From Clostridium phage slur17: a stretch of 41,318 nt of DNA. Below, in pieces: positions 1 to 30,776 of the stretch (its first letter is position 1; every line of letters begins with the position of its first letter). Both the position numbers and the translations under genes were made by a program. The notes below the pieces were generated by a model that ran no database searches, was not told the DNA's origin, and worked only from the letters and a program-made list of their open reading frames with translations. Location: sequence record LN881738.1; one strand, 5' to 3'.

Positions 1-595
1 TGTCTGTAACTTCTTTAGTTAGAGTATCTTTAGTAGTATTAACATCACTAATCATGCTGTTTTTAGCGTCTGTAACTTCTGTAACTTTAGAGTCGAAAGT
101 TTCTTTTATACTATTAAATTCTTCGACTCTTTTAATTTCTGCTTCTTTTCTTGCTTCTTCTGTTTCTTTTATTTCTTCTATGCCTTCGACGACTTCTTTT
201 ACTTGATTTATTGTAACGCTGATATAATCCCATTTCGGTTCTTCTGTAATACTGTTTTTATCTATACTTTTCTCTATATTAATCTTTAAAGAAAAAGTAG
301 TAACAACTAAATCATCTTTGTAGAAAGTAAACTCTACTATTACATCCCCCGCAACTTCTGTTATGTTATTTTCTATTATAGTTGTTGCAATAGAATTTTC
401 TATAGTACAGCTCTGATAAACTATTTTCCCGTCTGGTCTTTGAAAATTTGCTATAGCTGTATATCCTGTCAAATCTTTTTCTATATTATTTTCTAATAAA
501 TTAATCTTAAATTCTATTGCATTATCATATTGCTTATATTTTGCAACTTGGTAACTTTTAGTGTTAATATCTACTGTATAAATTCTATCTCTCAA
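1..595 (-). CDS. Tail fibre / baseplate upper protein (BppU-like N-terminal domain); 5' part only, ORF runs off the left edge
   Basis: Absent from the ORF track because there is no stop in the window. TTG at 595-593 follows AAAGGAGTG (601-609), and the frame stays open to base 1. Translation is LRDRIYTVDINTKSYQVAKYKQYDNAIEFKINLLENNIEKDLTGYTAIANFQRPDGKIVYQ..., followed by a coiled-coil-like stretch ...EEFNSIKETFDSKVTEVTDAKNSMISDVNTTKDTLTKEVTD. Confidence 0.75.
   Translation of the reverse strand, partial: MRDRIYTVDINTKSYQVAKYKQYDNAIEFKINLLENNIEKDLTGYTAIANFQRPDGKIVYQSCTIENSIATTIIENNITEVAGDVIVEFTFYKDDLVVTTFSLKINIEKSIDKNSITEEPKWDYISVTINQVKEVVEGIEEIKETEEARKEAEIKRVEEFNSIKETFDSKVTEVTDAKNSMISDVNTTKDTLTKEVTD
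29..127. repeat. 99-bp perfect direct repeat, copy 1 (partner at 41192-41290)
   Basis: Base-by-base comparison shows identity from tttagtagtattaacatcac... to ...attcttcgac. The flanks are only partly similar. Confidence 0.9.
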
Positions 596-609
596 ATTTA
601 TCACTCCTT

Positions 610-852
610 TTACTCTACCATTTTTGGAGTAAATTCTTTTATTATTTCTTTTTCCTTTAATACAAATTTTCCGTTTTCAATTTTATAATCACGAGGATTT
701 AAAATTTCTGGAATATCCTCGACAACTATTTTATCTAATATTTGCCTATAATCCTCTTCCCTATCTGCAAAGCAGGTATAATCCTGCTCCATCTCTGATT
801 TTATGCAATTATATATTTCTCCAGTTCTCTTGCTGTAAAAAATAGTAACCAT
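610..852 (-). CDS. Hypothetical small protein in the tail module
   Basis: 80-aa ORF tightly packed between the Tal gene and the fibre gene on the same strand. No motif recognised. Confidence 0.6.
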   Translation of the reverse strand: MVTIFYSKRTGEIYNCIKSEMEQDYTCFADREEDYRQILDKIVVEDIPEILNPRDYKIENGKFVLKEKEIIKEFTPKMVE

Positions 853-878
853 ACTTCTTCTCCTTTTTTTTGAAAATT

Positions 879-2975
879 TTAAGCATAAACATAGTATTGT
901 ACTGTAATAAATCCTTCTGAAAAAAAATTCATTCCGAGCCAGTAGCCTATTGTTTGGCTTCCTGACATTTCGTAAGACACACCTCGCACAGATGCAGAAA
1001 GTTCCAATTGTGGATTTGTATCACTTTTTTTTGCTGTCGCTGATGTGCTGAAATAACTTAAACAGCTACCATTTGTTGATGTAGACCTTATTGCACAAGT
1101 TGCTTTAAAATTTTTACCTGCAAATTTTTTTGGTAAGTCTATTATGATTTTTGAATCTTTATAATCAAAGTATGTGTATCCACTTTCTTGAAGATAATAT
1201 GACTCTGTTACATCTGAACCGGTGTAGAATTTTGTATATAGCCCCGAGTCGGTCATTTTTGTAAATCCCTTCCCGCTTATAAGTTTCAATCCTTCATCAT
1301 CAATAAGAACATAAGGACTTACACTATTAAAAGCAATTTTAAAAGTATTTGGGTTAAAATGAACATCTCCAAAACTATCAATTTCCATTGTTTTGACTCC
1401 ATTATCATTTACGACTACCATTTCTCTAGCATTTATATACATGCCTTTTAGCTGTCCAAACCAACCTCTATCTAGCTTCAACTCCCCAATTAATGCATCT
1501 GCTATTGCTCCTTTTTCTATCCACATAGTTCCATCGTCGATTTTTGTAGTCTGTGCTTCTACTTGATTAGAGAACTCTGTAACATTTCCATGCGAGTTTA
1601 CTGCTCTTACTCTGAAATACCAAGTTTGAAAAGGTTCAGCTTGATGAACGTAAGCACTTGCTTGCCCTACAAAAATTCGATTTGTAAAATTAATTGTATC
1701 TGGTACAAAGTCTTTAATTTGAGACGCATAAACTTCATATTTGTAATAAGACTTATTTGTAAATGTCCATGTTAGATTGATAAAAGCGAATAACCCCTCT
1801 GCTGTCAAAGCTGGTGTATTCGGTAAAGTGTCTGGAAACTCTGAATCATCTACTTTGACATTATCAATAGCTTTTTTTACTGTTTCTATTTTATTTTCTA
1901 TATTATTAAACTTGTTATTTAAAAAGTCTAAATGATTTATTAAATCGCCAACTTCAATACTATAGTATTTTCGATTTATTGGGCTATAGTCTGTTTTAAC
2001 TACTCTAGCAGTTGCGTTAATGTTTAAATTAAAATCTCGTATTATCACTTCATCACCTAGATTGACTGTTTCTAGCATTTTGTAATCTTTATAATTTATA
2101 GTTGTAGATAAATCTACGAAGTTGACTTTGTATAAAACTTTTGGTAAATCAACTTGATTGTATTTAAAATAGTCTTTGCATTTTTCTCTTAATTCTTCTT
2201 CAACACTGACCTCATCAGAACTAAAATCTATAGCAACAATCTTTTGGGTAGCATATTTATTCATATTAGGACTAACAATGTATTTTTCTGTCAATGTAAT
2301 CATTTCATCTTCGTAGACCGCATAAGGATATATTTTTGTTACAATATCTTGTGTATCATACTCCGCTTCAAGCCCTGTTATATTTTTTTTATATGCAAGT
2401 AGCACATTTTTACTCTCACCTCTTTGATAATTTAAGAAAACATTAAAATTATCAAAGAAAAGTTTCGCAGTTGGTTCAAATTTTTGAATTAGAGAATTTT
2501 CGCCCTCGCAGATTGCGCTGTAAGGGCTTTGCATTTCAATATTAATAGTATTCCTTGCCTTGATGTCTGAATGTCCTCTAAATCTGTTCTGTTCCTCACA
2601 AGCACGAAAGACTCTTTCTAAAGCTTCTTCGCAAGTAATATCGTTCAATTCCAAACTTTCTATGAAATTATTAAGCAAATCATACTTAATGTGTTGCGCT
2701 TTTACATTAATATACCCACCTAGATTTTTTGATATATAATAAATTCTAAAAAGCTGGTCTTTGTAGTCGGGCGAAGTATCAGCTTTAATTAATCTATCTA
2801 CTTTTATTTCTTTAAATAAAAAAGAGTCTTCGTAGATAGTAAATTCTAACTCGAAAACTCCGCTTTCTTCCTCTCTAACATGGTCATTTATTACATTCGT
2901 AAGAACACCTAAACCTAAATGCCTAAAATCTGTTTCTTTTTCTTCATATAAAACTAATTTTCCTTTTTGAATAAT
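879..2975 (-). CDS. Tail-associated lysin / prophage tail endopeptidase-type protein (Tal) with an FN3-like central domain
   Basis: The track ORF 879..2678 continues in frame for 99 more codons (IIQKGKLVLYEEKETDFRHLGLGVLTNVINDHVREEESGVFELEFTIYEDS...), which is a typical Tal N-terminus. Strong SD GGAGGGAGGG at 2980-2989. There is no ATG/GTG/TTG in that stretch, so the start is probably ATT at 2975 or 2972. Confidence 0.8.
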   Translation of the reverse strand: MIQKGKLVLYEEKETDFRHLGLGVLTNVINDHVREEESGVFELEFTIYEDSFLFKEIKVDRLIKADTSPDYKDQLFRIYYISKNLGGYINVKAQHIKYDLLNNFIESLELNDITCEEALERVFRACEEQNRFRGHSDIKARNTINIEMQSPYSAICEGENSLIQKFEPTAKLFFDNFNVFLNYQRGESKNVLLAYKKNITGLEAEYDTQDIVTKIYPYAVYEDEMITLTEKYIVSPNMNKYATQKIVAIDFSSDEVSVEEELREKCKDYFKYNQVDLPKVLYKVNFVDLSTTINYKDYKMLETVNLGDEVIIRDFNLNINATARVVKTDYSPINRKYYSIEVGDLINHLDFLNNKFNNIENKIETVKKAIDNVKVDDSEFPDTLPNTPALTAEGLFAFINLTWTFTNKSYYKYEVYASQIKDFVPDTINFTNRIFVGQASAYVHQAEPFQTWYFRVRAVNSHGNVTEFSNQVEAQTTKIDDGTMWIEKGAIADALIGELKLDRGWFGQLKGMYINAREMVVVNDNGVKTMEIDSFGDVHFNPNTFKIAFNSVSPYVLIDDEGLKLISGKGFTKMTDSGLYTKFYTGSDVTESYYLQESGYTYFDYKDSKIIIDLPKKFAGKNFKATCAIRSTSTNGSCLSYFSTSATAKKSDTNPQLELSASVRGVSYEMSGSQTIGYWLGMNFFSEGFITVQYYVYA

Positions 2976-3007
2976 TAATCCCTCCCTCCAAATTTTAATT
3001 TAAAACT

Positions 3008-3742
3008 TTATAAAATATTCCATCTAGGATTTATTTTTATGCTTTTTATATCCCCTTCCCAGCTAATCTGATTTTCTCCTTCTTCAAGTATGGGAAAGTC
3101 ACTAAAAAGCTTATTATTTTCATTTACAATAATGTTATTTTCTTTGTTTATTCTATATACATTCATCTGTTCGCTATCTATTATTAAGTCGCTTAAAATT
3201 CCATTTTCTGCCACCCCTCTTAGCACTATGCTTTGAGTATTTATTTTTATACTTATGTCCCCTGCTCCTTCTATATAGAGAACAGGTTTTGACTCTCTAT
3301 AGAAATTTGTTATAGTAGCACTCTTTAGATTTAATACATTTAAACTTATAATTTCTTCTTCTGCGTATCTAAAAGGGTAGCAGTCGAATGTTAAAAGACA
3401 TGATGCAAAGTTTTTAAAATTTCTAGTTATATCTAGTTTATTGTTACAGCTTGCTAGATAATAAAAGTCACTATTACTTAAAAAAAGTTTTTTATATGAT
3501 ATATCGCCCTGTAGCCATTTTTTTATTTCTGTTGCAACTTCTTCTATATTACTTTGTCTTGCATCTATATCGCATTCTATTGTAAGCGTAAAATTTTCAA
3601 AACCTTTTTTTAGTAGTAAATCTCCATCTTTGCCTGGCACACTCACTCTTTCAACTTCCATCTGTGGAGCTGATAAGTCGTTTATATTGTATATTTTTAA
3701 ACCAAATTCTCTGCTGTCTCGACCGTTATAAACGAAAAACAT
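3008..3742 (-). CDS. Distal tail protein (Dit, siphovirus tail component family)
   Basis: MFFVYNGRDSREFGLKIYNINDLSAPQMEVERVSVPGKDGDLL is a typical Dit N-terminus, and the gene lies between TMP and Tal. ATG at 3742 follows GAGAGGAGGG; the track start at 3763 is probably too long. Confidence 0.8.
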   Translation of the reverse strand: MFFVYNGRDSREFGLKIYNINDLSAPQMEVERVSVPGKDGDLLLKKGFENFTLTIECDIDARQSNIEEVATEIKKWLQGDISYKKLFLSNSDFYYLASCNNKLDITRNFKNFASCLLTFDCYPFRYAEEEIISLNVLNLKSATITNFYRESKPVLYIEGAGDISIKINTQSIVLRGVAENGILSDLIIDSEQMNVYRINKENNIIVNENNKLFSDFPILEEGENQISWEGDIKSIKINPRWNIL

Positions 3743-3862
3743 AGCTTTATGCCCTCCTCTCATTTATTATTTTTTAGACATAACTCCGTTTTTGTAGTTA
3801 TATTTTTTACTATAGTCTTTTCAAAAAAGATAAAAGGAAATATAAAAAAGAAAAGGAACATT

Positions 3863-6800
3863 TTATAAAGCTCCTTTTCTTTTTGCTAAGAACAATATTT
3901 CATCAAAAAGATTTTCTATATCTTGTTGTCTATTATTTACAAAGTTTTCTATATTAAGTTTAATACCTGCTTGATTTTCATTAGCTTCATCAGCCTTATT
4001 ATTACTCATTATAGCTGTTTCTTTTCCAGCTTTAAAATCTGTACTTGCAACTATATTAGCTTGTATTTTAGACGTTTCAAAATTAACTGTAGCTTTTAAT
4101 TTACCTGTAAGTTCAGATATATTTTTCTCTATTTTTTCTTTCAAGCCTGGCGTTTCTACATCTATTCCAACGCCGACCCCTTTTACAAGATTTCTACCAA
4201 TTAAATCTCGCATGATTATGGAAGGTGAATGCACTCCAAAGCCGTCTCTAAATCCATCTATAACATTACTAGCAAAATCAAGGACTTGGTCTTTTAACCA
4301 GCCACCCATGCCCGTTATACCTTCCCATAAGCCTCTTACAACATCTTTCCCGATACTCATAATTTTACTAGGCAAATCTTTCAAAGCATCCTTAACAGCA
4401 TTTGCCATATTTTTTCCAGCTTCTCCAGCTTGTTTGACTAAGTTAGTCCCCCAGCTTATGACATTTGAAATGATATTGTCTAGCCATTCTCTAAATTTTC
4501 CTGGAAGCTGGCTAACAGTATTGTATATATTGTTAAAAAAGTTTTTCGCTGTTTCTAAAGCTTTTTTAGATAAATTAACTTCCCACTCCATGACTTTTTG
4601 CATTATATTAGTTAATTTTTCCCATATTTTGCCCGGAAGTTCTGAAAAGAATTTCATTATATTTTCTAAGAATTTGCTTCCTGTTTCTAATGCTTTTTGA
4701 ATTAGATTAGAACCCCATTCCGAAACTTTTCCCATGATATCTGTAAACTTTTCCCATAATTTTCCCGGAAGCTCCGAAATTGGAATTAATACATTGTCAA
4801 CAAATTGATTAAAAATATCTGTTGCCAATTGCTTTAAATTTTCGCCCCAGCCACTTATTGTTTCTACTACTGTATTAAACCATTCCGAAATTCTTTCGGG
4901 TAGCTCTGTAAAAAACTGTGTTATATTTTCCCAAATTGCACCAAAAAACTCTGAAACAGAAACCTTGAAATTTTCGCCCCAAGTTTGAATATTTTGCAAT
5001 ATGATACTAAAAAATTCCGAAATTTTTTCCGGAAGGCTTACAAACCATTCGACAATGCTATTTATTATTTCTGGTAATGTTTCTGTTGCCCAGGCGTACA
5101 GATTAGCTCCTAAATCAACGAAAAAACCAGCAATAGACCCGATTACAAAACCAATATTATATGGAATTTGTTTAAACCATTCGACAATATTATTTATTAT
5201 AGCTGGCATTGTCTCATTAAAGAAACTTGATATTTTTTCTCCTATTTTCCCACATTCTTCTTTTATCTTGTCGCCAATACCCGCAAACCATTTTGGTACT
5301 GTGCTAGTAAAAAAGTCTAAACCACTTTTTAATCCGCTTCCAATTGCATCTCCAATTTTTGACCCAGTCTCTTTGAACCAATTGCTAAGACCGCCGAAAA
5401 TCTCTACAGCTTTATCTTTTATACTTGAAAAACCTTGCTGTGCCTTATCTCCAAACTCTGTAAAAAAGTCTCCAGCTCCTGCAAATCCTTCACTTATTTT
5501 ATTTCCAAGACCACCAAAAAATCCACCTATATTTTCAATTCCTTCTTTGAATTTATCTTTTACTTTAGAGAAGAAATCACCAATAGAATTTTTTGCACTA
5601 GCTAGCCACTCATTTATATTTTTGTCTGTATCTCTTAGCCATTTTTCTATTCCACCAAAAAAACCACCAATGCCATTGAACCCTTTTTTTATACTTTCAG
5701 ATAATTTACTAGCTGAATCCCCAACTTTAGGGACTGTTCCTGTTACGAGTTCATCACTGACAAGTTCTAAGCCTTCAACAGAAGTTTTAACATCATCTAT
5801 GCCATCAGCATATTCTTCTAGTTCTCCAGCGTCCAGTTTGGCAGAACCAGAATCCAAAGAGGAACTTTTAGCAGATGAGTCTACATCCCCTCCACTTGCG
5901 CTAGAAGTATTAGCTTTTTCTTTTAGTTTCTCATATTCTTCTAACTTTTTCTTCAATCTATCAAGCTCTTTTTCTTGTGCTGGTATAATCTCTTTTAAGT
6001 TAATAGCTTCCTTTACAGCTTCCTGGATAGATTGCTTTTTAGAGTTAACTCCATTTAACAAACTATCTGCTAAACTCTGCCCTGCATCCTGCCAATGCGG
6101 GTTATATTCACTTAAAAGTTTTATAATTTCTTCTGAATTTTTTTGTAAAAGTAGCCTTCTCGCTTCATTTTGAATATTTGTCTCTTCTAAAAGTTCACTA
6201 AAATATTTTTCAATTTCTTCTTTTTGACTAGCATTAGACTCTTTTATCAATTCAAGTTTTTTACTTTCTGCTTCTTTTTGATTGTCGTACTCTTCTTTGT
6301 ACTGCTCTTTTTTGTTACTAGCTTCTGTTTTTATATTTTCAATCTGTTCTTTTAATCTGTTTTTTTCTTGTTGCCTTTGTTCATCTAATAATTTCTTCTG
6401 TCTATCTGATTGTGCTTCTGATATTTCTTTTTGTATTTTTTCTCGTTCTTTTTGATTTTTAGCTGTTGCTAGTTTCCTGTCAAGGTCGCTTATTTTTTCA
6501 TTGTACGCTTTCTCTTCTTCTGCTTTTTGTTCTTCTTCAATTTGCTTGTCTATGGCGTCAATTTGTTCTTGTATAGCATTAGTTTTCTCATTTGTTTCTG
6601 TATCTAAATACTTTAATTTCTCATTGTATTCTTTTTCATAGACCTTTAATCTATCATTTGATGCCTTTTCCTCAACTTTTAGTCTTTCATCAAGCGCTTT
6701 TATTTGTATATCTTTTTGACTTTCATATTGATTTTTTAATGCTGTAGTTATAGCCTCGCAAATTTTTTCAAATTTACTCTTGTTGGTCTCAAGATTTTTT

Positions 6801-9166
6801 TCCATAGCACTTATTAATTCTTTTGTTGCCTCTACTACATCTTTGCTTGTATTTTTTATACCATTAGCAAATCCAATGCCTGCAAATTCTCCAAGTTCTG
6901 TTGTAACTTTAGACGGTGAATGTATTCTTAGTACTTTTTTAAATGTATTAACTACAGTTAAACCGATATTTTTTACAGTATCTACAACCAAACCGATACC
7001 GCTCGAAAGCCCATTTATTATCCCAGCTATTATGTTTTTTCCAAAGGTAACAAAGCCTTTTACAACACTAGAAAAGAAACTAAAAACCTTATTTTTAAAA
7101 CTTACACAACTATTATAAATAGCTTTAAATCCATTTACAAAAGGGCTTAATAACATACTTCCTATACTTTTCCAGTTATTTTTAATAAAACTTAAAACAT
7201 TTTTAAAGATGCCTACAATTTTGTTAAATATAGAATTTACAGTGTTTCTAAAACCTTCACAATTATCGTAAATTAATTTAAATGCTCCAATGAACGGATT
7301 TACTAAAATTAATAATAAGCCTTGCCAGTTACTCTTAATAAAAGACATTGTTTTGCTTAAAGCATCTTTAATGCTGTTAAATAATTTATTTATAGTATTT
7401 CTAAAACCTTCGCAATTATCATAGATTAATTTAAAACCACCAATGAAGGGATTAACAAGTAATAGAGCCAATCCTTGCCAATTTTCTTTTGCAAAGTCTA
7501 TAAATTTACTCATAGCTTGCGGTATTGTTTCAGTAAAGAATTTAGCAATTTGACCGAATATTTTCTCCCCAACTTCTTTAATATTATTCCAAATATTTAT
7601 AACGGCATCTCTGAAACCCTCATTGTTTTTCCAGAGCGATACGAATCCCGCAATCAAAGCCCCTACTGCTACTATAGTTAAACCAATCGGACCACCAAGC
7701 GCCGTTAATGCACCCTTCCACAAATTAGTTGCTACTTGCGCTAAACTTATTTTTTTTGTAACTAATCCAACTATAGTTTCATACAGCGTTAACGTAGTTC
7801 CTGATTCTGCCATCCCTGTGACGAACAGCCTTACAGCAAGTTGCGCATCTGTAAAGCTTTTTTGTATACCCCTTACAATTCCAGCAATTTTTAATCCAGC
7901 GAAAGCAACTCCAATCCCTGTTATCAAAGGAGCTACAAGGCTACCATGCTGAATCAAGAAGGTTATAACATTGATTAAAGGGGTTAATGCTAAAGATATT
8001 AACTTTACAACTGTTCCAATTAACGCACCAATGCTTTCTGCTGTACTTCTTATAGCATTTTTTGTATTTTCGTTTTGAAAAGCCTTAGCAAATTTATTTG
8101 CCAAATCATTTAAAACAGGAAGCAATCCCTCTGCAATTGGAAGAAGTAAATTAACCTGCATTTGCCTTCCAATTCCTGTTATCGCTTCTCCGAAACTATT
8201 GTATTTTATCTTATTAATTTCTTCTAATTTATCTTTTGAACTGCTTATACTTCCTTCGATATTTGTTAGCGCTGTTACTGCATCCGCTTCCAAATCCTCA
8301 AACTTAGTACCAAAGAGTTGTACACCTATCTGATTTTTTAATACATTATCATCTAAATTATTTAAAGCCGTTGTAACCTCAACAAAAGCCTCTTTTGCAC
8401 TACTTCCACCATTTGCAAATTTCTTAGTTAGTTCGTCAGCATTAAAACCGAGCGCCTCAAAAGCTTCCTTAGTTCCATTCGAACCGTCTTTAGCCCTAAT
8501 ATTAAATTCTTTCAAAGCGTCATTTAGATAGTCTATTTGATAGACTCCACTCTCTGCCCCGTTTTTCATCATATTAAACATTTCTTCTGCTGAAAAACCC
8601 ATCTGTGCGTAATATGTCGAATATTCTGCTAACTGGTCTCCGAGGTCATCATTCTGATTTAATCCTTGTTGTGCTCCCTGTGCAATCAAGTTGTACGACT
8701 CTTTTGCGCTAATACCAAATTGGCGCATCATGGAGTTTACGCCATTTAAACTTTCCCCAACATCCATGTCGAAAGTATCCCGCATCATAATCGCACTTTC
8801 AGTAACTTCTTGAATATTGCTAGCGTCTATCCCATCAAGCTTTTGAGATATTAAACTCATAACTTCGCTTATATCGCCCATGTCCTCGCCAAAATTATTT
8901 GCATAGACCTGCTGTAGCGCTTCTCCAAAGCCTTTTGCCTTAGCTTCCGCATTTCCCGTTGCTGACTCGAAACCATTCATTGCCTTTTGGTATTCATCCC
9001 CAAAGTCAATAGCCTGTTTTCCTATAGCTCCCAGACTTGCGCCAATTCCAGCTATCGCAAGAGCGCTTTTTGCTTTCTTCTTCATAGTATCAGCTAAGTT
9101 ATTAAGTTGTTTCTCTGCATCTTCGGTATTTAAAAGGGTATCTATAATAATAGAACCATCTGCCAT
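3863..9166 (-). CDS. Tape measure protein (1767 aa)
   Basis: Very long ORF downstream of the tail chaperones. It has hydrophobic and Gly-rich segments, a long E/K coiled coil, and many W/F-spaced helical repeats in the C-terminal third. Confidence 0.9.
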   Translation of the reverse strand: MADGSIIIDTLLNTEDAEKQLNNLADTMKKKAKSALAIAGIGASLGAIGKQAIDFGDEYQKAMNGFESATGNAEAKAKGFGEALQQVYANNFGEDMGDISEVMSLISQKLDGIDASNIQEVTESAIMMRDTFDMDVGESLNGVNSMMRQFGISAKESYNLIAQGAQQGLNQNDDLGDQLAEYSTYYAQMGFSAEEMFNMMKNGAESGVYQIDYLNDALKEFNIRAKDGSNGTKEAFEALGFNADELTKKFANGGSSAKEAFVEVTTALNNLDDNVLKNQIGVQLFGTKFEDLEADAVTALTNIEGSISSSKDKLEEINKIKYNSFGEAITGIGRQMQVNLLLPIAEGLLPVLNDLANKFAKAFQNENTKNAIRSTAESIGALIGTVVKLISLALTPLINVITFLIQHGSLVAPLITGIGVAFAGLKIAGIVRGIQKSFTDAQLAVRLFVTGMAESGTTLTLYETIVGLVTKKISLAQVATNLWKGALTALGGPIGLTIVAVGALIAGFVSLWKNNEGFRDAVINIWNNIKEVGEKIFGQIAKFFTETIPQAMSKFIDFAKENWQGLALLLVNPFIGGFKLIYDNCEGFRNTINKLFNSIKDALSKTMSFIKSNWQGLLLILVNPFIGAFKLIYDNCEGFRNTVNSIFNKIVGIFKNVLSFIKNNWKSIGSMLLSPFVNGFKAIYNSCVSFKNKVFSFFSSVVKGFVTFGKNIIAGIINGLSSGIGLVVDTVKNIGLTVVNTFKKVLRIHSPSKVTTELGEFAGIGFANGIKNTSKDVVEATKELISAMEKNLETNKSKFEKICEAITTALKNQYESQKDIQIKALDERLKVEEKASNDRLKVYEKEYNEKLKYLDTETNEKTNAIQEQIDAIDKQIEEEQKAEEEKAYNEKISDLDRKLATAKNQKEREKIQKEISEAQSDRQKKLLDEQRQQEKNRLKEQIENIKTEASNKKEQYKEEYDNQKEAESKKLELIKESNASQKEEIEKYFSELLEETNIQNEARRLLLQKNSEEIIKLLSEYNPHWQDAGQSLADSLLNGVNSKKQSIQEAVKEAINLKEIIPAQEKELDRLKKKLEEYEKLKEKANTSSASGGDVDSSAKSSSLDSGSAKLDAGELEEYADGIDDVKTSVEGLELVSDELVTGTVPKVGDSASKLSESIKKGFNGIGGFFGGIEKWLRDTDKNINEWLASAKNSIGDFFSKVKDKFKEGIENIGGFFGGLGNKISEGFAGAGDFFTEFGDKAQQGFSSIKDKAVEIFGGLSNWFKETGSKIGDAIGSGLKSGLDFFTSTVPKWFAGIGDKIKEECGKIGEKISSFFNETMPAIINNIVEWFKQIPYNIGFVIGSIAGFFVDLGANLYAWATETLPEIINSIVEWFVSLPEKISEFFSIILQNIQTWGENFKVSVSEFFGAIWENITQFFTELPERISEWFNTVVETISGWGENLKQLATDIFNQFVDNVLIPISELPGKLWEKFTDIMGKVSEWGSNLIQKALETGSKFLENIMKFFSELPGKIWEKLTNIMQKVMEWEVNLSKKALETAKNFFNNIYNTVSQLPGKFREWLDNIISNVISWGTNLVKQAGEAGKNMANAVKDALKDLPSKIMSIGKDVVRGLWEGITGMGGWLKDQVLDFASNVIDGFRDGFGVHSPSIIMRDLIGRNLVKGVGVGIDVETPGLKEKIEKNISELTGKLKATVNFETSKIQANIVASTDFKAGKETAIMSNNKADEANENQAGIKLNIENFVNNRQQDIENLFDEILFLAKRKGAL
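7025..7483. repeat. 3 x 153-bp tandem repeat inside the tape measure gene
   Basis: CCAGTT/CCAATT landmarks at 7478-7483, 7325-7330 and 7172-7177 give a 153-bp period. The protein units are NWQGLALLLVNPFIGGFKLIYDNCEGFRNT.., NWQGLLLILVNPFIGAFKLIYDNCEGFRNT.. and NWKSIGSMLLSPFVNGFKAIYNSCVSFKNK... Confidence 0.8.
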
Positions 9167-9196
9167 TTATTCACCCCCTTTTTATAAATTTGCATT

Positions 9197-9236
9197 AAAA
9201 AAGCACCTACTTTTTAAAAAAGTAAGTGCTTTTTAT
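9197..9236 (-). terminator. Hairpin with flanking A/T runs between the DUF4236 gene and the TMP start
   Basis: agcacctact (9202-9211) pairs with agtaagtgct (9221-9230) with one mismatch. A T-run follows on the minus strand. Confidence 0.55.
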
Positions 9237-9271
9237 TTAAATCTTCTACTATATTTTTCTCTTTACAAATA

Positions 9272-9913
9272 TTAATCTTGTTTTTTAACATCATTTAATA
9301 GTTGTTTATATAGCCTATTAAGCTTAGTTTTATTATCATTATTTAAATGCTCTTTATAATCTATTGCTAAACTAGAGAATTTATAAGCATTGTTCATGCG
9401 AGCCTTTTCAGTTTTTAGTTCTTTCAATTTACTAGACATTTCATTGTAGTATCTAGTCAAAAAGTCATTTATAGTATCAGTCTTTTTTGCTATTATGCTG
9501 TCTAGCATCTGGCTAGGAGATTGACCAGAAAAGTTTAAGTTATCCTCTATGGCAACTAAGGCATATGATTTATCTAACAACATATTATATCTATAAAAAA
9601 ATGTTTTAGGGTCTTTTGTAGTATTAACTATATTAGCACAATCGTTTATTATTTTTAATAGCTGTTGAGCCTGCCTACTACTCTCCGAGCCTCCTGCACT
9701 CTTACCATTTTTCTTTTTACCTCCACCTAGTTGAGTTGTTTCTTGATAATATAAGCCACTTCCAGGAACTCCCAAAGTCGTCGTAGCTTTCCCTTTAGAA
9801 TTAACTGAAACTCTAGCACCTTTAACGCCACCGCTAACACTAACACTATTTTTATTAATATTTAACTTCAATCCACCGCCTAGATTTATGCTTTTTCTAA
9901 ATTTAAATCCCAT
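9272..9913 (-). CDS. DUF4236-like protein (moron inside the tail module)
   Basis: The N-terminus MGFKFRKSINLGGGLKLNINKNSVSVSGGVKGARVSVNSKGK matches my memory of the DUF4236 repeat pattern. It is followed by a Gly/Lys linker and a helical C-terminal domain. Confidence 0.7.
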   Translation of the reverse strand: MGFKFRKSINLGGGLKLNINKNSVSVSGGVKGARVSVNSKGKATTTLGVPGSGLYYQETTQLGGGKKKNGKSAGGSESSRQAQQLLKIINDCANIVNTTKDPKTFFYRYNMLLDKSYALVAIEDNLNFSGQSPSQMLDSIIAKKTDTINDFLTRYYNEMSSKLKELKTEKARMNNAYKFSSLAIDYKEHLNNDNKTKLNRLYKQLLNDVKKQD

Positions 9914-9984
9914 AACAATCCCCCCAAATTAAAATATTTATATAATAATTATATATTAATTCGGAAGGTGTAGAGTATATTATT

Positions 9985-10593
9985 TTATAATAAATTACTA
10001 ATATCTCCACCATTTAGCAAAGCTCTTTCAATTTCATTTATTTTCTCAACCTCATTTTTAGGAAGTGGTATAGCATGTATTTTTTTCATTTTCCTATAAA
10101 AATCTTTTTGCGCTTTTGGCATATCTCCACTTATATCCATTGCCCTGTAACCCATAATTTTAACTATCTCAGTATCTTCTTTCAAGGATTTAAATAGCGC
10201 TTTAAATTTCCACCAGTGTAATTTTTCTATGTCTTGCAAGTCAATCCCATATTGCCCTAGAAAAGCGGAATATATATACTCGTCGTCATGGTCATACGAA
10301 TATATTTGCCCCTTACTAGAACCACCCGCACCACTTTGACAACTATCATTAATATCATTTTCTTTTTTCCCGCACGAATAAAACCATATAATTTTATCTA
10401 TAGCCACCGTAGTATTTATAGGTATTACAGGGTAATATAAAGAAAGTGCATTTTTCCCTTTTTCCTCGTCACTTATAGAATCATCTTGTATCAACATTTC
10501 AAACAGAATTGATATTCTAAAATCTGTATTAATTTTATATTCTTCCCCATCAATTTCAACGTTTTCGGGAAGTACATCTATTAACATATTCAT
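9985..10593 (-). CDS. Tail assembly protein (Gp15-like; T-type partner of the chaperone pair)
   Basis: Lies immediately upstream of the TMP region. It is in the -1 frame relative to the preceding ORF, with a TAATG overlap, and has no convincing SD of its own. Confidence 0.6.
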   Translation of the reverse strand: MNMLIDVLPENVEIDGEEYKINTDFRISILFEMLIQDDSISDEEKGKNALSLYYPVIPINTTVAIDKIIWFYSCGKKENDINDSCQSGAGGSSKGQIYSYDHDDEYIYSAFLGQYGIDLQDIEKLHWWKFKALFKSLKEDTEIVKIMGYRAMDISGDMPKAQKDFYRKMKKIHAIPLPKNEVEKINEIERALLNGGDISNLL

Positions 10594-10955
10594 TATTTTT
10601 TAGCTCTACGTTGCGCTCGGTTTGGCGTATACTTTGATACAGCTGAGGCGAAAAATTCTTCCCCCTCTTGTTTCTGTCTATTAACTTCTTCTATTAATTC
10701 AAAAAAAGCATTTGAGCATACCTTTAAATTTCTCTTATCTCCAAACATTTTATTTGATGTGCCTTCCCCGAAAATATCGTCAAAGCATTTAAAAATTAAA
10801 TTACATATATCTCTAATCATTTCATAACCTTTGGTTGCCTCTTTCTCAACTTTTCCCGTTTCAGTAATAGTCAAGCCTATTGTTTTTTCAATGTTTTCAT
10901 ATTCATCAGCATCATATATATCAAAATCTTTTAATTCTATATTATTAATTAACAT
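10593..10955 (-). CDS. Tail assembly chaperone (G-type)
   Basis: 120-aa acidic ORF between the major tail protein and the Gp15-like ORF. It ends in AAA AAA TAA. Confidence 0.55.
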   Translation of the reverse strand: MLINNIELKDFDIYDADEYENIEKTIGLTITETGKVEKEATKGYEMIRDICNLIFKCFDDIFGEGTSNKMFGDKRNLKVCSNAFFELIEEVNRQKQEGEEFFASAVSKYTPNRAQRRAKK

Positions 10956-11012
10956 CTTTTGAATCTCCTTATTTTTAATTATTTATATAAATATTTTAAT
11001 TCAATTATATAG

Positions 11013-11813
11013 CTACTCTTTTACTGTAACAGTAGCTATTCCTGCCTTTTTCGCTTTATTGCCCGAATTAACCTCTACTATCAATATTTTATCCCCTTCA
11101 TTTGCTGTTATATCCTCAGTACCATCCCAAGTAGTATATCCAACTGAACAATCAGCATCTAATGCTGGAACTGAAACACTTGCCCCAGTCTTATATTTAT
11201 AACTATTTCCACTTTCAAGACCTGGAGTAACGGTTACTTTTGTATCCCCTGTGTTAGTACCCGCAATTGAATTTACAGTTAAAATCTTTAAACTTTCAGC
11301 TGGTGGTGCTTCTTCCCCAACCTCCGTGAAAATCTTTGTCTGAGTGTTAAATTCTCCATCTACAAAATTACCAACGCTATTTAAGTTCCCGCTGACAATA
11401 ATTGTTTCTCCTCCTGCTCCTGCAAGCCCAGAGACTTCAACTGACACTCTAAATTTTCTAGCCTTAAAAGTATTATCTTTTCCTTCAACTGGTAAAAATA
11501 ATTCTACTCTTAAATAATCTCTTTCAGCATCTGCGCCAGTTGCCTGGTCTCTACCTATCTTATAAAGTTCCATTATAGCCTTTTCGCTTTTAATTAAATC
11601 CGACTCAAACGGGAATTGTGTTTGGTAAGATTTTATAGCACTAGTACTGTTTCTATCGTTTATATATGTTTTAGAGTCACTTTGCGCGGATGGGTTCTCG
11701 TCTAATGTATTAAATCCTGCCCCCATCAACTCCCAAGAATTTTGTCCATCGTCTCCTAAAATTCCTAAATAATCCGCAATTTTATATCTTTGTATCGTTT
11801 CTATTCCTGCCAT
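11013..11813 (-). CDS. Major tail (tube) protein with a C-terminal Ig-like domain
   Basis: Its position follows the head-tail connectors. The C-terminus LKILTVNSIAGTNTGDTKVTVTPG...ATVTVKE resembles a Big_2-type Ig decoration. Confidence 0.75.
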   Translation of the reverse strand: MAGIETIQRYKIADYLGILGDDGQNSWELMGAGFNTLDENPSAQSDSKTYINDRNSTSAIKSYQTQFPFESDLIKSEKAIMELYKIGRDQATGADAERDYLRVELFLPVEGKDNTFKARKFRVSVEVSGLAGAGGETIIVSGNLNSVGNFVDGEFNTQTKIFTEVGEEAPPAESLKILTVNSIAGTNTGDTKVTVTPGLESGNSYKYKTGASVSVPALDADCSVGYTTWDGTEDITANEGDKILIVEVNSGNKAKKAGIATVTVKE

Positions 11814-22868: not shown

Positions 22869-23051
22869 CTATACCATCAATTTTTCTATAATTGTCTTTT
22901 TAATAATTTCAACATTTTCATATTCTTTTATCTTTTCATTTTTGCAAACTCTAGCATCTATTAAAGTGCTAAAACTTTCTTTATCCATTCTTAAAGTTCT
23001 TGAATTAAAATATATAACATTGTATTTAATATCTTTCTTCATTGCTAACAT
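22869..23051 (-). CDS. Hypothetical small protein
   Basis: 60-aa ORF in the early operon, with no recognised motif. Confidence 0.4.
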   Translation of the reverse strand: MLAMKKDIKYNVIYFNSRTLRMDKESFSTLIDARVCKNEKIKEYENVEIIKKTIIEKLMV

Positions 23052-23391
23052 CCTTTACATACCAGCCAGTTCTTGTAGGTCTTCCTCTCCGAATTACAGG
23101 GTACAAATCTTTAACATTTAAAAAATTTTCTGCTTCATCTATAGCCATTTCTTTTATTTCACCTGTTTTTGCATTTACAAGTCTTACCTTTTTACGTTCT
23201 TTTTTCTGATGCTCTCTAATTTTCAATGCACTACATGCCTTAGTAGAACTAGCCAAAACCTTTTTATTTCCATGAACTTTAACCGGTTTTATGCAACAAT
23301 ATAACGCTAAATAATTTTTAAAAGTTAGGTCATCTTCCATAAAATTCAGATTAACTGAACCACTAAAAATTTTTTCTACTTTTTTAATCAT
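23026..23391 (-). CDS. Hypothetical protein
   Basis: 121-aa basic ORF starting 12 nt after the out-of-frame SSB tail stop. Confidence 0.5.
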   Translation of the reverse strand: MIKKVEKIFSGSVNLNFMEDDLTFKNYLALYCCIKPVKVHGNKKVLASSTKACSALKIREHQKKERKKVRLVNAKTGEIKEMAIDEAENFLNVKDLYPVIRRGRPTRTGWYVKDVSNEERY

Positions 23392-23403
23392 TTAATCACC
23401 TAC

Positions 23404-23490
23404 TTAAAAAGGTATATCGTCGTCTATAGCCTGGAAACCTTGCGGGTCTAAGCCTCCCGGCTCGAACTTACATTCTTTTTCATTATCCTC
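23404..23490 (-). other. Out-of-frame SSB C-terminal tail (28 codons ending DDDIPF*)
   Basis: The +1 frame after the A7 run (T7 at 23491-23497 on the plus strand) reads EDNEKECKFEPGGLDPQGFQAIDDDIPF*. This is the canonical acidic SSB tip. Confidence 0.7.
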
Positions 23491-23809
23491 TTTTTTTATA
23501 ATCTAAAAATTTAATTTTATTAGTATGAACTTTTGTATAAGTTCTTTTCTCGCCATCTTTTTCATAAAGATTAACCCTTATAGACCCTTCAACCGCTACT
23601 AACCTACCTTTATCTAAATTATTAGCACATACTTCTGCTAACTTCCCCATCACCTCAATAGGTATGAAATCAGTTTCCTTAGTTCCATCTTTTTTAACAT
23701 AATCTCTATCTACTGCTATTGTAAAAGTAGATACAGCTGTTCCAGAACCTGGTATATATTTCAATTCGGGGTCTCTTGTTAGTCTACCAATTAGTGTAGT
23801 GTTATTCAT
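23483..23809 (-). CDS. ssb: Single-stranded DNA-binding protein, OB-fold part (ends prematurely after a poly-A tract)
   Basis: MNNTTLIGRLTRDPELKYIPGSGTAVSTFTIAVDR is a classic SSB N-terminus. ATG at 23809 follows GGGAGGT; the track TTG at 23815 is less likely. Confidence 0.85.
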   Translation of the reverse strand: MNNTTLIGRLTRDPELKYIPGSGTAVSTFTIAVDRDYVKKDGTKETDFIPIEVMGKLAEVCANNLDKGRLVAVEGSIRVNLYEKDGEKRTYTKVHTNKIKFLDYKKRG

Positions 23810-23922
23810 TTCCAACCTCCCCCCTTACAATTCTCACATTCTCTTAAATTAACTCTATATTCATATATACGACCAATAAAAAATGCAAATATAATCAAAA
23901 TTATCATTCCTAAAAAAATCAT
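23806..23922 (-). CDS. Small membrane peptide (38 aa)
   Basis: Below the track size threshold. Translation MIFLGMIILIIFAFFIGRIYEYRVNLRECENCKGGGWK. TAATG coupling upstream and ATGA coupling to ssb. Confidence 0.4.
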   Translation of the reverse strand: MIFLGMIILIIFAFFIGRIYEYRVNLRECENCKGGGWK

Positions 23923-24320: not shown

Positions 24321-24632
24321 TTAACCCTTTTTTATAGGTATAGAATTAAGACATTTTTGCTTAATTCTAATGCTTTTAGTTCTGTTATAAATCGCTATCG
24401 CTTTCCTTGTTTCTTTATTTAAAATACAATCTATAAACAAGCTATATACATCTAATTCACTTTTATACTCTTTCAACTGTTCTTCTAAAATTTGAATCAA
24501 TTCTTCATTGTTACTCATAATACGCTCATAATACCTTATCTTATCGTCCCTTACTTTGTTTTCTTCTTTCAAACATTCAATATTTCTATCCACCTGCTCC
24601 TGGGAAACGATTAAGTATTTACCTATTTTCAT
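24321..24632 (-). CDS. Hypothetical coiled-coil protein
   Basis: 103-aa ORF with an ATGA overlap to the upstream small ORF. Confidence 0.55.
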   Translation of the reverse strand: MKIGKYLIVSQEQVDRNIECLKEENKVRDDKIRYYERIMSNNEELIQILEEQLKEYKSELDVYSLFIDCILNKETRKAIAIYNRTKSIRIKQKCLNSIPIKKG

Positions 24633-26910: not shown

Positions 26911-27264
26911 ATGAATACTAGAATTAGAGACTTGCGAATTGCAGAGGGGCTATCTCAAATCGAATTTGGGAACAAGCTAGGAATGACTAGACACGAAATT
27001 TACAATCTTGAAAGTGGAAGAACACGAATAAAAGAAAGTGATTTAAAATTAATAACTTCAACATTTAAGGTAAACGAAAAATGGCTAAAAACAGGCGAAG
27101 GCGATATGTATACTTTTTCAAACAATAACTTAATAACAGCAGAAGTCTTATGCGCAATAGATAAGAATGAACGTCTTGCTAAAGCAATGTTAAAATTTAG
27201 CAAGTTAAATGACAAAGAATTAGAGGCAATGGAAAAGCTACTAGAATTATTTCAAAAAGAATAA
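26911..27264 (+). CDS. cI-like XRE-family repressor
   Basis: IRDLRIAEGLSQIEFGNKLGMTRHEIYNLESGRTRI is a classic XRE HTH, and the gene is divergent from the early operon. Confidence 0.85.
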   Translation: MNTRIRDLRIAEGLSQIEFGNKLGMTRHEIYNLESGRTRIKESDLKLITSTFKVNEKWLKTGEGDMYTFSNNNLITAEVLCAIDKNERLAKAMLKFSKLNDKELEAMEKLLELFQKE

Positions 27265-28471: not shown

Positions 28472-30637
28472 CTACATAAAACCTTTTAATAACAATAGTT
28501 TTTCATCTTCATCTAAAGAGTTCAACATCCTGTCTTTTGTATATTTTATAGCATTTTCTAAACTCTTATCTTTTTCGTCTAATTCTAAATCTTTTTTTAT
28601 GTCATCTACAGTTATATATCTTTTTATATTATTAAGTTGTATTCGTTTTTTTTCAAACTGGCATGATATAGGATTTATATTTTTATAAAAAAACATAGTT
28701 TCTATATCATGCCAGTTACTATATTTTTTCTTTTCTATAATAAAAATTCCATTCAGTGTAACGCTTAGCTTTTTAGTTGTTAAATCCCAGTTTTCCCCTA
28801 AAATTGTTCTTAAGTCGTTACTTAACTCTTGTAAATGCAATTCTTTATAAGATGTTCCAATTCCAAACAATTTATCTATATAATTAAATACTGTAACTTG
28901 AATAAGTTCATCATTTAAAAACTCTGGATATTCCTCTTTTAATTCTCTATATATTAAAGTATTTATTTTATTAAATATTACCCCACGTCTTTTGTTTGCT
29001 GTATTCGCTAGTTTCCAAGCAAGGTCTAAGTCGAACTTATTATCTAGTACATAATTAGAATATAGTTCTAACATGCTATTACTTTTACTTTTCTTTACCA
29101 AATTATGTATGTCATACGCTCTGTAAGCCTCTAAGCACCCTTTTGAACTTAGTTTCATATCATTATGATACTGCATTAGTGAAAAGCTCTTAGAATCGCT
29201 TTTAATCTGTCTATAACCTACTAGAATTTCTTTATGTTCTTTTAAAATTTCTCTTGTTGCATCTTTAATTTCTTTTACAACTTTCTTGTACTCTTTTAAC
29301 TCTTTTTCATTTGTGCCAACTTCTTTAGCATCAGTTATATTAACATTTTCAAAATATTCTTCTAATAACACTTTAAAACTTTGAATTGTTCTTGTATTGT
29401 AATAGTTGCTGTAAACTTGACTTTTTATATATAATTTATCTACTTTATAGCAATTATCTTTTGTACAGTAGTACACATTTGAGTCTATGCGAATTGGCGT
29501 TGCATTTATTCCAACTGTTTCAAACTGTAACATGTGTTTAGATACTTTGTTATAAGCATCTTTTAAGATAGTTGCTTTTTCTATATTTTTGTTAACTAGC
29601 CATTCAATTTTGTATACATTGCACTCTTCTTCATATTTATTGAATATGTGTACATTTACTTTTTTTAAGTTTCTAAACCTTGCAACATACTGTTTTATAG
29701 CTCCAACATCTTTTATATTAACAATAATTATATCTGTGATATCTTTGTTGTTTATATTTACACCAGCTAGGATTGTTGTTGTATTTAAAAGCGTTTCATA
29801 GTCTTTCATGTCTGAATTTTTAACTATTCTATTGTACAATTCATTCTCTTCTTTTCCATCTGCATATACAACTCCAACTTTTTTGTTCACTGAATCTCTT
29901 ATAAATTCTAATGTTGATATATCATTCATCAACATGGCGCTGTTTTTAGATTTATTTATTATGTTAATCATTTCAGTAAAATTTTTATTGTCAAAGTCGT
30001 TGTACAATTTAACTTTATATTCTGTTTTTTGCTTTTGAGTGTACTCTATTATGTAGTCATATATTTCAAATTCAAGTTTTGTTGGTGTTGCTGTAATGTC
30101 TATTCTTCCTTTGCACTTAGACATTATATTATTTAGATTTTTTATTGCTTTTCCTCGATATGCATCTGTATAAGTTTGATGTATTTCATCAACTACAATT
30201 ATGTATTCACTTAAGTCTGTGTTTATAAGTTTTTCAGTTTTATCCCAAGTCATTACAACTAAGTTACCATTTTTAAATGCTTCGCTAACAGGTATTTTGT
30301 CATATGCTCCTGGTATATCATACTCGTGCATTGCCTGCTCCACATTTGAAGCATTTGGAAGTATGAATAACGCTTTTGTTTTTAATTTTTTTAATGTATT
30401 TATAAAGCTATAACTTTTTCCTGCTCCTGTCGGTGCAATAAACAGGGTTTTCCCGCCATTTATCGCGTTGGCTATAGCCGTTTTAATTCCTAGTTTTTTT
30501 TCGTTTATATATTTTTTTATTTCATATGTTTCATGTCTATTGAAATTTGAATAATTTTCTTTTTCATGCTCTGCTCTTTCAGCGCTACATTCTTCTAAAA
30601 ACATCTTATCTATATTATTTTTATTAACATTCTTCAT
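28472..30637 (-). CDS. Superfamily-2 DExH helicase (721 aa) with an uncharacterised ~370-aa C-terminal region
   Basis: Motif I APTGAGKS, Ia FILPNASNVEQ, II VVDEIHQ, III TATP, V TTILAGVNI, VI QYVARFRN. ATG at 30637 follows GGAGGG; the track start at 30658 is probably too long. Confidence 0.85.
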   Translation of the reverse strand: MKNVNKNNIDKMFLEECSAERAEHEKENYSNFNRHETYEIKKYINEKKLGIKTAIANAINGGKTLFIAPTGAGKSYSFINTLKKLKTKALFILPNASNVEQAMHEYDIPGAYDKIPVSEAFKNGNLVVMTWDKTEKLINTDLSEYIIVVDEIHQTYTDAYRGKAIKNLNNIMSKCKGRIDITATPTKLEFEIYDYIIEYTQKQKTEYKVKLYNDFDNKNFTEMINIINKSKNSAMLMNDISTLEFIRDSVNKKVGVVYADGKEENELYNRIVKNSDMKDYETLLNTTTILAGVNINNKDITDIIIVNIKDVGAIKQYVARFRNLKKVNVHIFNKYEEECNVYKIEWLVNKNIEKATILKDAYNKVSKHMLQFETVGINATPIRIDSNVYYCTKDNCYKVDKLYIKSQVYSNYYNTRTIQSFKVLLEEYFENVNITDAKEVGTNEKELKEYKKVVKEIKDATREILKEHKEILVGYRQIKSDSKSFSLMQYHNDMKLSSKGCLEAYRAYDIHNLVKKSKSNSMLELYSNYVLDNKFDLDLAWKLANTANKRRGVIFNKINTLIYRELKEEYPEFLNDELIQVTVFNYIDKLFGIGTSYKELHLQELSNDLRTILGENWDLTTKKLSVTLNGIFIIEKKKYSNWHDIETMFFYKNINPISCQFEKKRIQLNNIKRYITVDDIKKDLELDEKDKSLENAIKYTKDRMLNSLDEDEKLLLLKGFM

Positions 30638-30776
30638 CTTTATCCCTCCAATTTCCACCTGGAGGCTGACGCTCTTTTTTTGATTTTTTGTAATAATTTT
30701 ACTATTAAAATTACCTTAAAACCATTGTGTTTTTCTACACTTTGTCTTATAATATAAATATAAGTATAGAAAAACA

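Follow-up and report, generated by a model that had tools for sequence, protein, structure and literature searches.

A fixed +1A frameshift, recurrent in sister phages, truncates the single-stranded DNA-binding protein of phiCD38-2-type Clostridioides difficile phages

[quoted passage not shown] The window analysed here, the whole 41,318-nucleotide stretch of record LN881738.1, is a phiCD38-2-type C. difficile phage or episome. Its ssb ORF, the counterpart of phiCD38-2 gp49, lies on the minus strand (23809–23483), starts at ATG 23809 behind a GGAGG ribosome-binding site (the mechanical ORF list prolongs the gene to a TTG at 23815) and encodes 108 amino acids with a complete OB fold, ending ...KFLDYKKRG*; the C-terminal end of frame 0 reads ...HTNKIKFLDYKKRG. 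The A7 run (23497–23491, minus strand; T7 on the plus strand) is the site of the +1A frameshift, where relatives carry A6 or A5GG, and a premature TAA (23485–23483, minus strand) ends frame 0 two codons past it. The +1 frame continues as a remnant of the linker and acidic tip, 28 residues in length (23490–23404, minus strand; EDNEKECKFEPGGLDPQGFQAIDDDIPF*), in which translation places the DDDIPF tip codons GAC GAC GAT ATA CCT TTT at 23407–23424 (minus strand).

The tail frame is open from 23502, after a TAG at 23505–23503, and three-frame translations leave a single 17-nt window (23486–23502, minus strand), from this opening to the frame-0 stop, where a full-length SSB would result from a shift of +1 or −2. 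Separate translation of the tail was ruled out: ATG, GTG and TTG are all absent from the tail frame downstream of this TAG, so the tail is not translatable on its own. The tail-frame stop (23406–23404) is followed by 12 nt and then by the ATG (23391) of a gp50-like gene (121 amino acids; 23026–23391, minus strand), with an AGGTGA ribosome-binding site (23396–23401) in between. This spacing fits the stop of a full-length ssb, and the A7 allele therefore leaves a 91-nt untranslated gap. Upstream lies a gp48-like gene for a small membrane protein (38 amino acids; 23806–23922, minus strand), the stop of which overlaps the ssb ATG.

Two side observations concern the immediate surroundings of the tract. 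The end of the gp48-like gene contains a polymorphic G6 run (23819–23824, minus strand) within the ssb ribosome-binding region: G6, found in the window and in phiCD38-2, gives a 38-amino-acid gp48 ending ...CKGGGWK*, and G5, found in one A7 carrier (L029) and in three other sequences (L020, L035 and L036), gives a 39-amino-acid gp48 ending ...CKGEVGNE*. The run adjoins the ssb Shine–Dalgarno sequence, and a change in its length could affect translational coupling. Within the tail, an in-frame polymorphism of the GAC triplet repeat (23419–23424 and the homologous loci of L017, L020 and L037) produces either a DDDIPF or a DDDDIPF tip; each version occurs with both A6 and A7, which shows that this short stretch has undergone either mosaic exchange or slippage more than once.

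In-frame SSBs of 134–141 amino acids are encoded by phages phiCD146, Hain-Saunders-2022a, AR1074-1, phiCD6356 and phiCD111, with C-termini of the form D(D/G/P)DIPF or DDCLPF. The tract reads TAY AAA AAA GAR GAT AAT in the first three, TAT AAA AAA GAT GAT in phiCD6356 and TAT AAA AAG GAT GAT in phiCD111. The 28 out-of-frame codons of the window match, almost residue for residue, the C-termini that these five relatives with A6 or A5GG encode in frame, and the match is far in excess of chance. The wider SSB family comprises dozens of in-frame clusters of 132–135 amino acids, several of them on 150–230 contigs, and a truncated representative in only one cluster. On this evidence the tail is ancestral coding sequence, and A7, which is longer than A6 by one A, is derived. 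The first-pass annotation, whose placing of the ssb stop, the A7 run, the 28-codon +1 frame and the 12-nt gap to the next gene was confirmed by translation, had taken the downstream frame for ancestral SSB coding sequence, as the near-identical in-frame tails of the relatives bear out; the comparison of tract length among related phages that it had suggested returned A6 or A5GG, in frame.

A region of 601 nt around the site is 100% identical in phiCD38-2 (HM568888/NC_015568), CDSH1/CDHS1 (KU057941) and Clostridioides phage AR1075-1 (OQ703261), all members of the genus Leicestervirus, and a 108-amino-acid SSB is annotated in HM568888, KU057941 and OQ703261. The A7-carrying phage genomes in GenBank are independent deposits of Canadian, UK and US origin. 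Those of phiCD38-2 and CDHS1 entered the database as genomes of isolated phages, and both phages form plaques and lysogenise. The same 601 nt are identical in two complete C. difficile plasmids (NZ_CP037803.1, 41,319 bp; and NZ_CP021446.1), and two IMG/VR contigs (L022 and L025) also contain the identical A7 region. The haplotype of ssb plus tail was identical in all 14 sampled carriers, in the two IMG/VR contigs and in the window. One contig (L028; GCA_900010485.1, CZZS01000021.1, 68 kb) carried the early region, with ssb, as two copies in inverted orientation (~120–5100 and ~6500–11500), both with A7, which could represent an inverted episome dimer or an assembly artefact.

Population numbers rest on exact-protein look-ups, because a DNA-pattern census gave few matches: six in IMG/VR (two with A7), none in the JGI metagenomes and one among the GTDB representative genomes (L026), a chance match in an unrelated gene. 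The exact 108-amino-acid product was found on at least 619 contigs (NCBI, ENA and Logan assemblies; 742 index blocks) and the flanking genes of the same phage on 651–694 contigs each, so that practically every sampled copy of the phage has A7. The exact A6, A5, A8 and A9 products of the phiCD38-2 allele were all absent from the collection of 15 billion proteins, i.e. alternative tract lengths numbered zero among the 619+ copies of this allele, whereas both states occurred on two sister haplotypes. Such uniformity excludes a consensus-level sequencing artefact for A7, and makes a rapidly switching tract in the phiCD38-2 allele unlikely. The phiCD38-2-type block showed only six variable sites among the 14 carriers in the 4.5 kb around ssb, from which ~0.1 substitutions are expected in the 84 tail nucleotides, giving no power for a test of selection on the tail.

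The 90% cluster that contains the 108-amino-acid protein also contains other truncated SSBs on different backbones. A change from A6 to A7 produced the phiCD6356-type allele P0004 (...KKR*, with two tail haplotypes; 17 contigs vs 194 and three for the in-frame P0016 and P0017), the phiCD146-like allele P0007 (...KKRG*; seven contigs vs 11 for P0019) and two phiCD38-2-like alleles with a DDDDIPF tail, P0005 (...KKRG*; 10 contigs vs four for P0036) and P0002 (...KKRG*; two contigs vs 74 for P0039), while a change from A5GG to A6GG produced the phiCD111-type allele P0008 (...KKG*; five contigs vs 311 for P0023). Each truncated allele has an exact in-frame sibling in the databases, and the in-frame form of the phiCD38-2 OB backbone is P0038, with a DDDDIPF tail, on five contigs. 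One contig (L009) aligned to phiCD6356 over 1,414 nt, and another (L015) to phiCD111 over 2,007 nt, both with no mismatch and a single gap, the extra A. Counted by local sequence context, +1A arose independently at least four times; in this count the group of phiCD38-2, P0002 and P0005 was entered as one event because its mosaic pattern cannot separate repeated mutation from recombination. The lesion is real, fixed and recurrent.

The direction of these changes was uniform. Exact-product look-ups found no −1A product on the phiCD38-2, phiCD6356, phiCD111 and P0039 backbones, and neither −1A nor +2A products on four backbones; up to 15 of the 40 members of the mixed cluster were listed, so that rare unnamed variants may be missed. 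The stop arrives one to three codons past the tract in each +1A allele, and frame translation indicates that a −1A allele would append 12–14 junk residues. The +1-frame tail was intact in every A7 or +1A allele examined; no A7 lineage showed secondary damage to the tail frame, the sampled lineages being too young for this to carry weight. A different kind of truncation was seen in a single contig carrying a phiCD6356-type SSB of 98 amino acids (P0014), cut inside the last OB strand (...RTYTKVLMFL*), which probably inactivates the protein, unlike the tract alleles.

By length, the tract has ample company. The genes of the phage hold 97 others, comprising 70 A6 and 27 A7-or-longer runs in 35 genes, and a helicase-like gene (DEAD/ResIII, 721 amino acids; 28472–30658, minus strand) contains two A8, four A7 and one T7 in frame. 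No frameshift-truncated variant of this 721-amino-acid helicase was present among the cluster members listed (wild type on 694 contigs), in contrast to the ssb tract of the same phage. The four flanking-gene clusters (651–694 contigs each), a coarse control that gives no rate estimate, yielded alternative start calls and one real truncated variant, P0073. This protein of 77 amino acids, on five contigs, is the truncated product of a divergent gp50-like allele (gene at 23026–23391); a 104-amino-acid gp50-like form (75 contigs) seems to stem from an alternative start call and not from a sequence change. Among closely related genomes, the only nearby uncompensated coding homopolymer indel other than the ssb A-run was the G5/G6 at the end of gp48. 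The ssb tract is unremarkable as a run; it stands out by its repeated polymorphism. Slippage in A/T runs produces mainly +1 insertions and seldom deletions, and it climbs exponentially as the run lengthens (PMC5574713). The simplest reading, given a coarse control, would be that frameshifts arise at many runs but persist only if the phage can do without what they remove.

Other length polymorphisms were observed further away. An A6 at 24328–24333, three codons before the stop of a 103-amino-acid gene (24321–24632), is A5 in a diverged relative (L020), a C-terminal homopolymer polymorphism that alters the last residues of the protein. Two intergenic (AT)n microsatellites (~27996 and ~27736), beside an HTH repressor-like gene (26911–27264), differ in length by 2–12 nt among otherwise near-identical phiCD38-2-type genomes, and may lie in a regulatory or origin region.

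What the stop removes can be read from the domain boundaries. Pfam PF00436 covers residues 1–102 of the 108-amino-acid SSB at 98.7 bits (cutoff 26), TIGR00621 scores 101.5 bits (cutoff 53.95), and SSB structures in the PDB match with E values of ~1e-21. Residues 1–106/108 align to OB cores of known structure from B. subtilis (SsbA and SsbB) and from the S. aureus SSBs (including 3vdy and 6bhw), and OB cores of comparable length have been crystallised. Since the Pfam domain and the OB cores end at ~102–108, the stop removes the linker and the tip (26–28 residues) and leaves the OB fold complete. The protein therefore has the N-terminal OB-fold domain expected of the SSB family, and lacks an in-frame acidic tip held by a flexible linker, the DDD(I/L)PF motif described for SSBs (PMC3384303) being encoded solely in the +1 frame. 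Tail-less SSBs have precedents in B. subtilis, where the 113-amino-acid SsbB has no acidic tail and still binds and protects ssDNA, and where cells with an SsbA lacking its last 35 residues (SsbA-delta35) are viable, if thermosensitive (PMC3384303).

The explanation that we consider probable is a fixed and heritable +1A frameshift that yields an OB-only, SsbB-like SSB in phages for which the tail is dispensable. An A6-to-A7 insertion lies at the Lys-Lys codons between the OB fold and the short linker, translation ends two codons later, and the main, probably the only significant, product would be the 108-amino-acid SSB, devoid of the linker and of the DDDIPF tip, through which host proteins for replication and repair are normally recruited. 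Such a protein would be functionally comparable to naturally tail-less SSBs, e.g. B. subtilis SsbB. The survival of the 28 intact tail codons in the +1 frame is due to the youth of the lineage, and not to any demonstrated continued use. The lesion is tolerated, in that isolated phage genomes carry A7 and the allele belongs to the most frequently sampled lineage of the group. Given this tolerance and the recurrence in sister phages, the tail appears to be dispensable, or its loss mildly beneficial. We infer that the 108-amino-acid protein is made and functional, that the tail is dispensable and that the host compensates; the phages being temperate and episomal, the hub function would presumably be supplied by an SSB of the host or by a co-resident one.

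The recurrence itself is open to more than one reading, namely a tolerated neutral or slightly deleterious loss, positive selection, or a need for a minor full-length isoform. The exclusive occurrence of +1A, never −1A, together with the presence of the lesion in the most successful lineage, hints at selection rather than neutral decay, and the clean stops likewise favour some selection on the outcome, although a −1A allele, with its 12–14 junk residues, may simply be more harmful. If the loss is merely tolerated, the abundance of the clone may reflect hitch-hiking in epidemic hosts. We see a small chance that the extra A is a selected state, either as a repeatedly favoured loss of the tail or as a 'savior indel' with rare +1/−2 decoding; this is hinted at because there are at least four +1A events, no −1A, clean stops and fixation in the most widespread lineage. 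Adaptive loss and compensatory frameshifting can both overlap with plain truncation as to the primary product.

Positive selection for removal of the DDDIPF tip, with the homopolymer as the easiest mutational route, might for example avoid titration of host SSB partners during episomal lysogeny or allow escape from a host system that senses the phage SSB or is titrated by its tip. We regard it as unlikely. The at least four independent +1A events with a stop within one to three codons and no −1A allele fit such selection, as do the tail-less allele marking the most frequently sampled lineage (619+ contigs) and the near absence of frameshifted variants in flanking genes with longer A-runs. A possible source of selection is suggested by reports that phage SSBs are triggers or escape loci of Retron-Eco8, Hna, AbpAB and Septu (PMC12184496, PMC13381803). 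Outside the phiCD38-2 clone, however, truncated alleles amount to ~40 contigs vs well over a thousand in frame, and no truncation was found on either of two abundant backbones, P0025 and P0040. Exact-product look-ups and the cluster members listed gave no nonsense allele within the linker, and we know of no SSB-sensing system in C. difficile. In the one case examined, deletion of the C-tail of the T7 SSB left Retron-Eco8 activation in place (PMC13402713). Moreover, the frequency of the clone may be due to hitch-hiking with epidemic host lineages, phiCD38-2-like elements being common in ST1 and ST37 (PMC6807378).

Slightly more doubtful is the 'savior indel' scenario, in which rare +1/−2 ribosomal or −1/+2 transcript slips on A7 provide a few tailed subunits that co-assemble with tail-less ones, the resulting oligomers with few tails tuning the recruitment of host proteins. 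The tract AAA AAA A does permit a P-site tRNA-Lys to shift from AAA to AAA into the +1 frame, and A7 allows perfect tRNA-Lys re-pairing in the +1 or −2 frame within the 17-nt window; the intact tail frame in all A7 alleles examined and the restriction to +1A alleles are in keeping with the scenario, and the HSV thymidine kinase (PMC5009743) and the two-isoform output of the tssM1 poly-A run (PMC4256274) provide precedents. Stimulators of frameshifting are nevertheless missing: the A-site holds AGA, which the phage genes use more than any other Arg codon (227 of 353, 64%) and which is thus not slow, no Shine–Dalgarno-like element occurs in the 20 nt upstream of the tract (A/T only), and RNA structure near the tract is not significant (z = −0.77; 46 of 200 shuffles as stable). 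At 7 nt the tract is also shorter than slippage sites, which are typically 9 nt or more, and tssM1 uses A11 for ~20% frameshifting (PMC4256274). Slippage in runs is mostly +1 insertion, and a slip to A8 leads into a junk frame (...KKKRIMKKNVSSSREA*), the tail frame requiring −1 or +2. The 27 other in-frame A7-or-longer tracts, with two A8 in the helicase gene, argue for low slippage in this host, and the out-of-frame layout is not conserved, diverged homologues being in frame. Nor are the intact tails evidence for recoding, because the alleles are young (six sites in 4.5 kb; the sporadic alleles match their siblings), and this youth explains the tails as well. Recoding signals are absent, and the programmed slippage or +1 frameshifting envisaged in the first-pass annotation is unsupported by sequence signals or conservation. 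An unprogrammed trickle of full-length SSB could still arise from A7 as far as computation can tell, as a minority beside the truncated product.

Phase variation, whereby high-frequency A6/A7 flips would toggle tailed and tail-less SSB within populations, is very improbable. Two sister phages (h1 and h5) do show both states with no other difference between the haplotypes, but the tract is short (6–7 nt), neither an exact A6 nor an exact A8 occurred among the 619+ assemblies of the phiCD38-2 allele, the in-frame backbones P0025 (86 contigs) and P0040 (26 contigs) had no +1A variant, and the 97 comparable tracts showed no similar polymorphism in the genes checked. Of the recent inactivating or phase-variable indel that had been proposed for this site, a real indel giving a tail-less SSB is the best-supported reading, and phase variability is unsupported; 'recent' applies in a relative sense, given the fixation of the allele in a clone that is very widespread. 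A homopolymer sequencing or assembly error with A6 as the true length, the other possibility raised at the outset, would be in line with the error-proneness of some platforms at homopolymers and with the single base that restores the frame, but is almost certainly wrong in view of the identical A7 in three independent phage genomes, two complete plasmids, two IMG/VR contigs and 619+ contigs, and of the absence of an A6 version of the phiCD38-2 allele from the records searched.

Tolerated truncation, as the favoured explanation, corrects a first reading as an assembly error and accounts for the 108-amino-acid annotation of phiCD38-2 gp49; our literature search found no paper discussing the ssb frameshift. 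It would make of this plaque-forming, epidemic-associated C. difficile phage lineage a natural experiment with an SSB deprived of its protein-recruiting tail, and sister phages keep losing the tail in the same way, which points to its dispensability in these phages. The result bears on the use of host replication and repair factors by temperate Firmicute phages and on the engineering of CDHS1/phiCD38-2-type phages for therapy and, if the tail loss is selected, would connect with phage SSBs as triggers of bacterial immunity. The population record of the lesion is unusually clear, and it is of modest interest that the lesion recurs and that a lineage without the tail is so successful.

Thermus dnaX (A9) and Shigella mxiE (T9) are transcriptional-slippage genes with an interrupted frame. 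In these genes and in C. rodentium tssM1, whose A11 run gives ~20% frameshifting and a ratio-dependent output of two isoforms (PMC4256274), a premature stop likewise comes soon after a homopolymer and the C-terminal domain lies in another frame; their tracts, however, are 9–11 nt long, conserved and rescued by insertion, whereas that of ssb is 7 nt long, unconserved and in need of −1 or +2. The HSV thymidine kinase also shares with ssb a one-base homopolymer indel in a viral gene with an intact downstream frame. There, indels in a G-run are rescued by low-level frameshifting ('savior' indels; PMC5009743), residual frameshifting and its benefit having been demonstrated, whereas a full-length ssb product is hypothetical only.

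The closest comparisons are within the SSB family itself (PF00436/TIGR00621), including B. subtilis SsbA and the SSBs of phiCD6356, phiCD111 and phiCD146, with which the 108-amino-acid protein has the complete OB fold in common. It is 84–99% identical to the in-frame SSBs of 132–135 amino acids from C. difficile phages, and the same linker and DDDIPF are encoded downstream; unlike in those proteins, the linker and tip of the phiCD38-2 type are out of frame behind A7 and the product is OB-only. B. subtilis SsbB (113 amino acids; PDB 3vdy) is likewise a Firmicute SSB of ~110 amino acids that is OB-only and has no acidic tail, and the phage protein falls in the 105–115-amino-acid range of such tail-less paralogues. 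SsbB, however, is an old, dedicated competence paralogue without tail DNA, whereas the phage tail is a fresh out-of-frame remnant in a replication module, its coding DNA intact in the +1 frame and its in-frame siblings 99% identical. By kind, this is an ordinary frameshift allele; by effect, it converges on the known tail-less SSBs.
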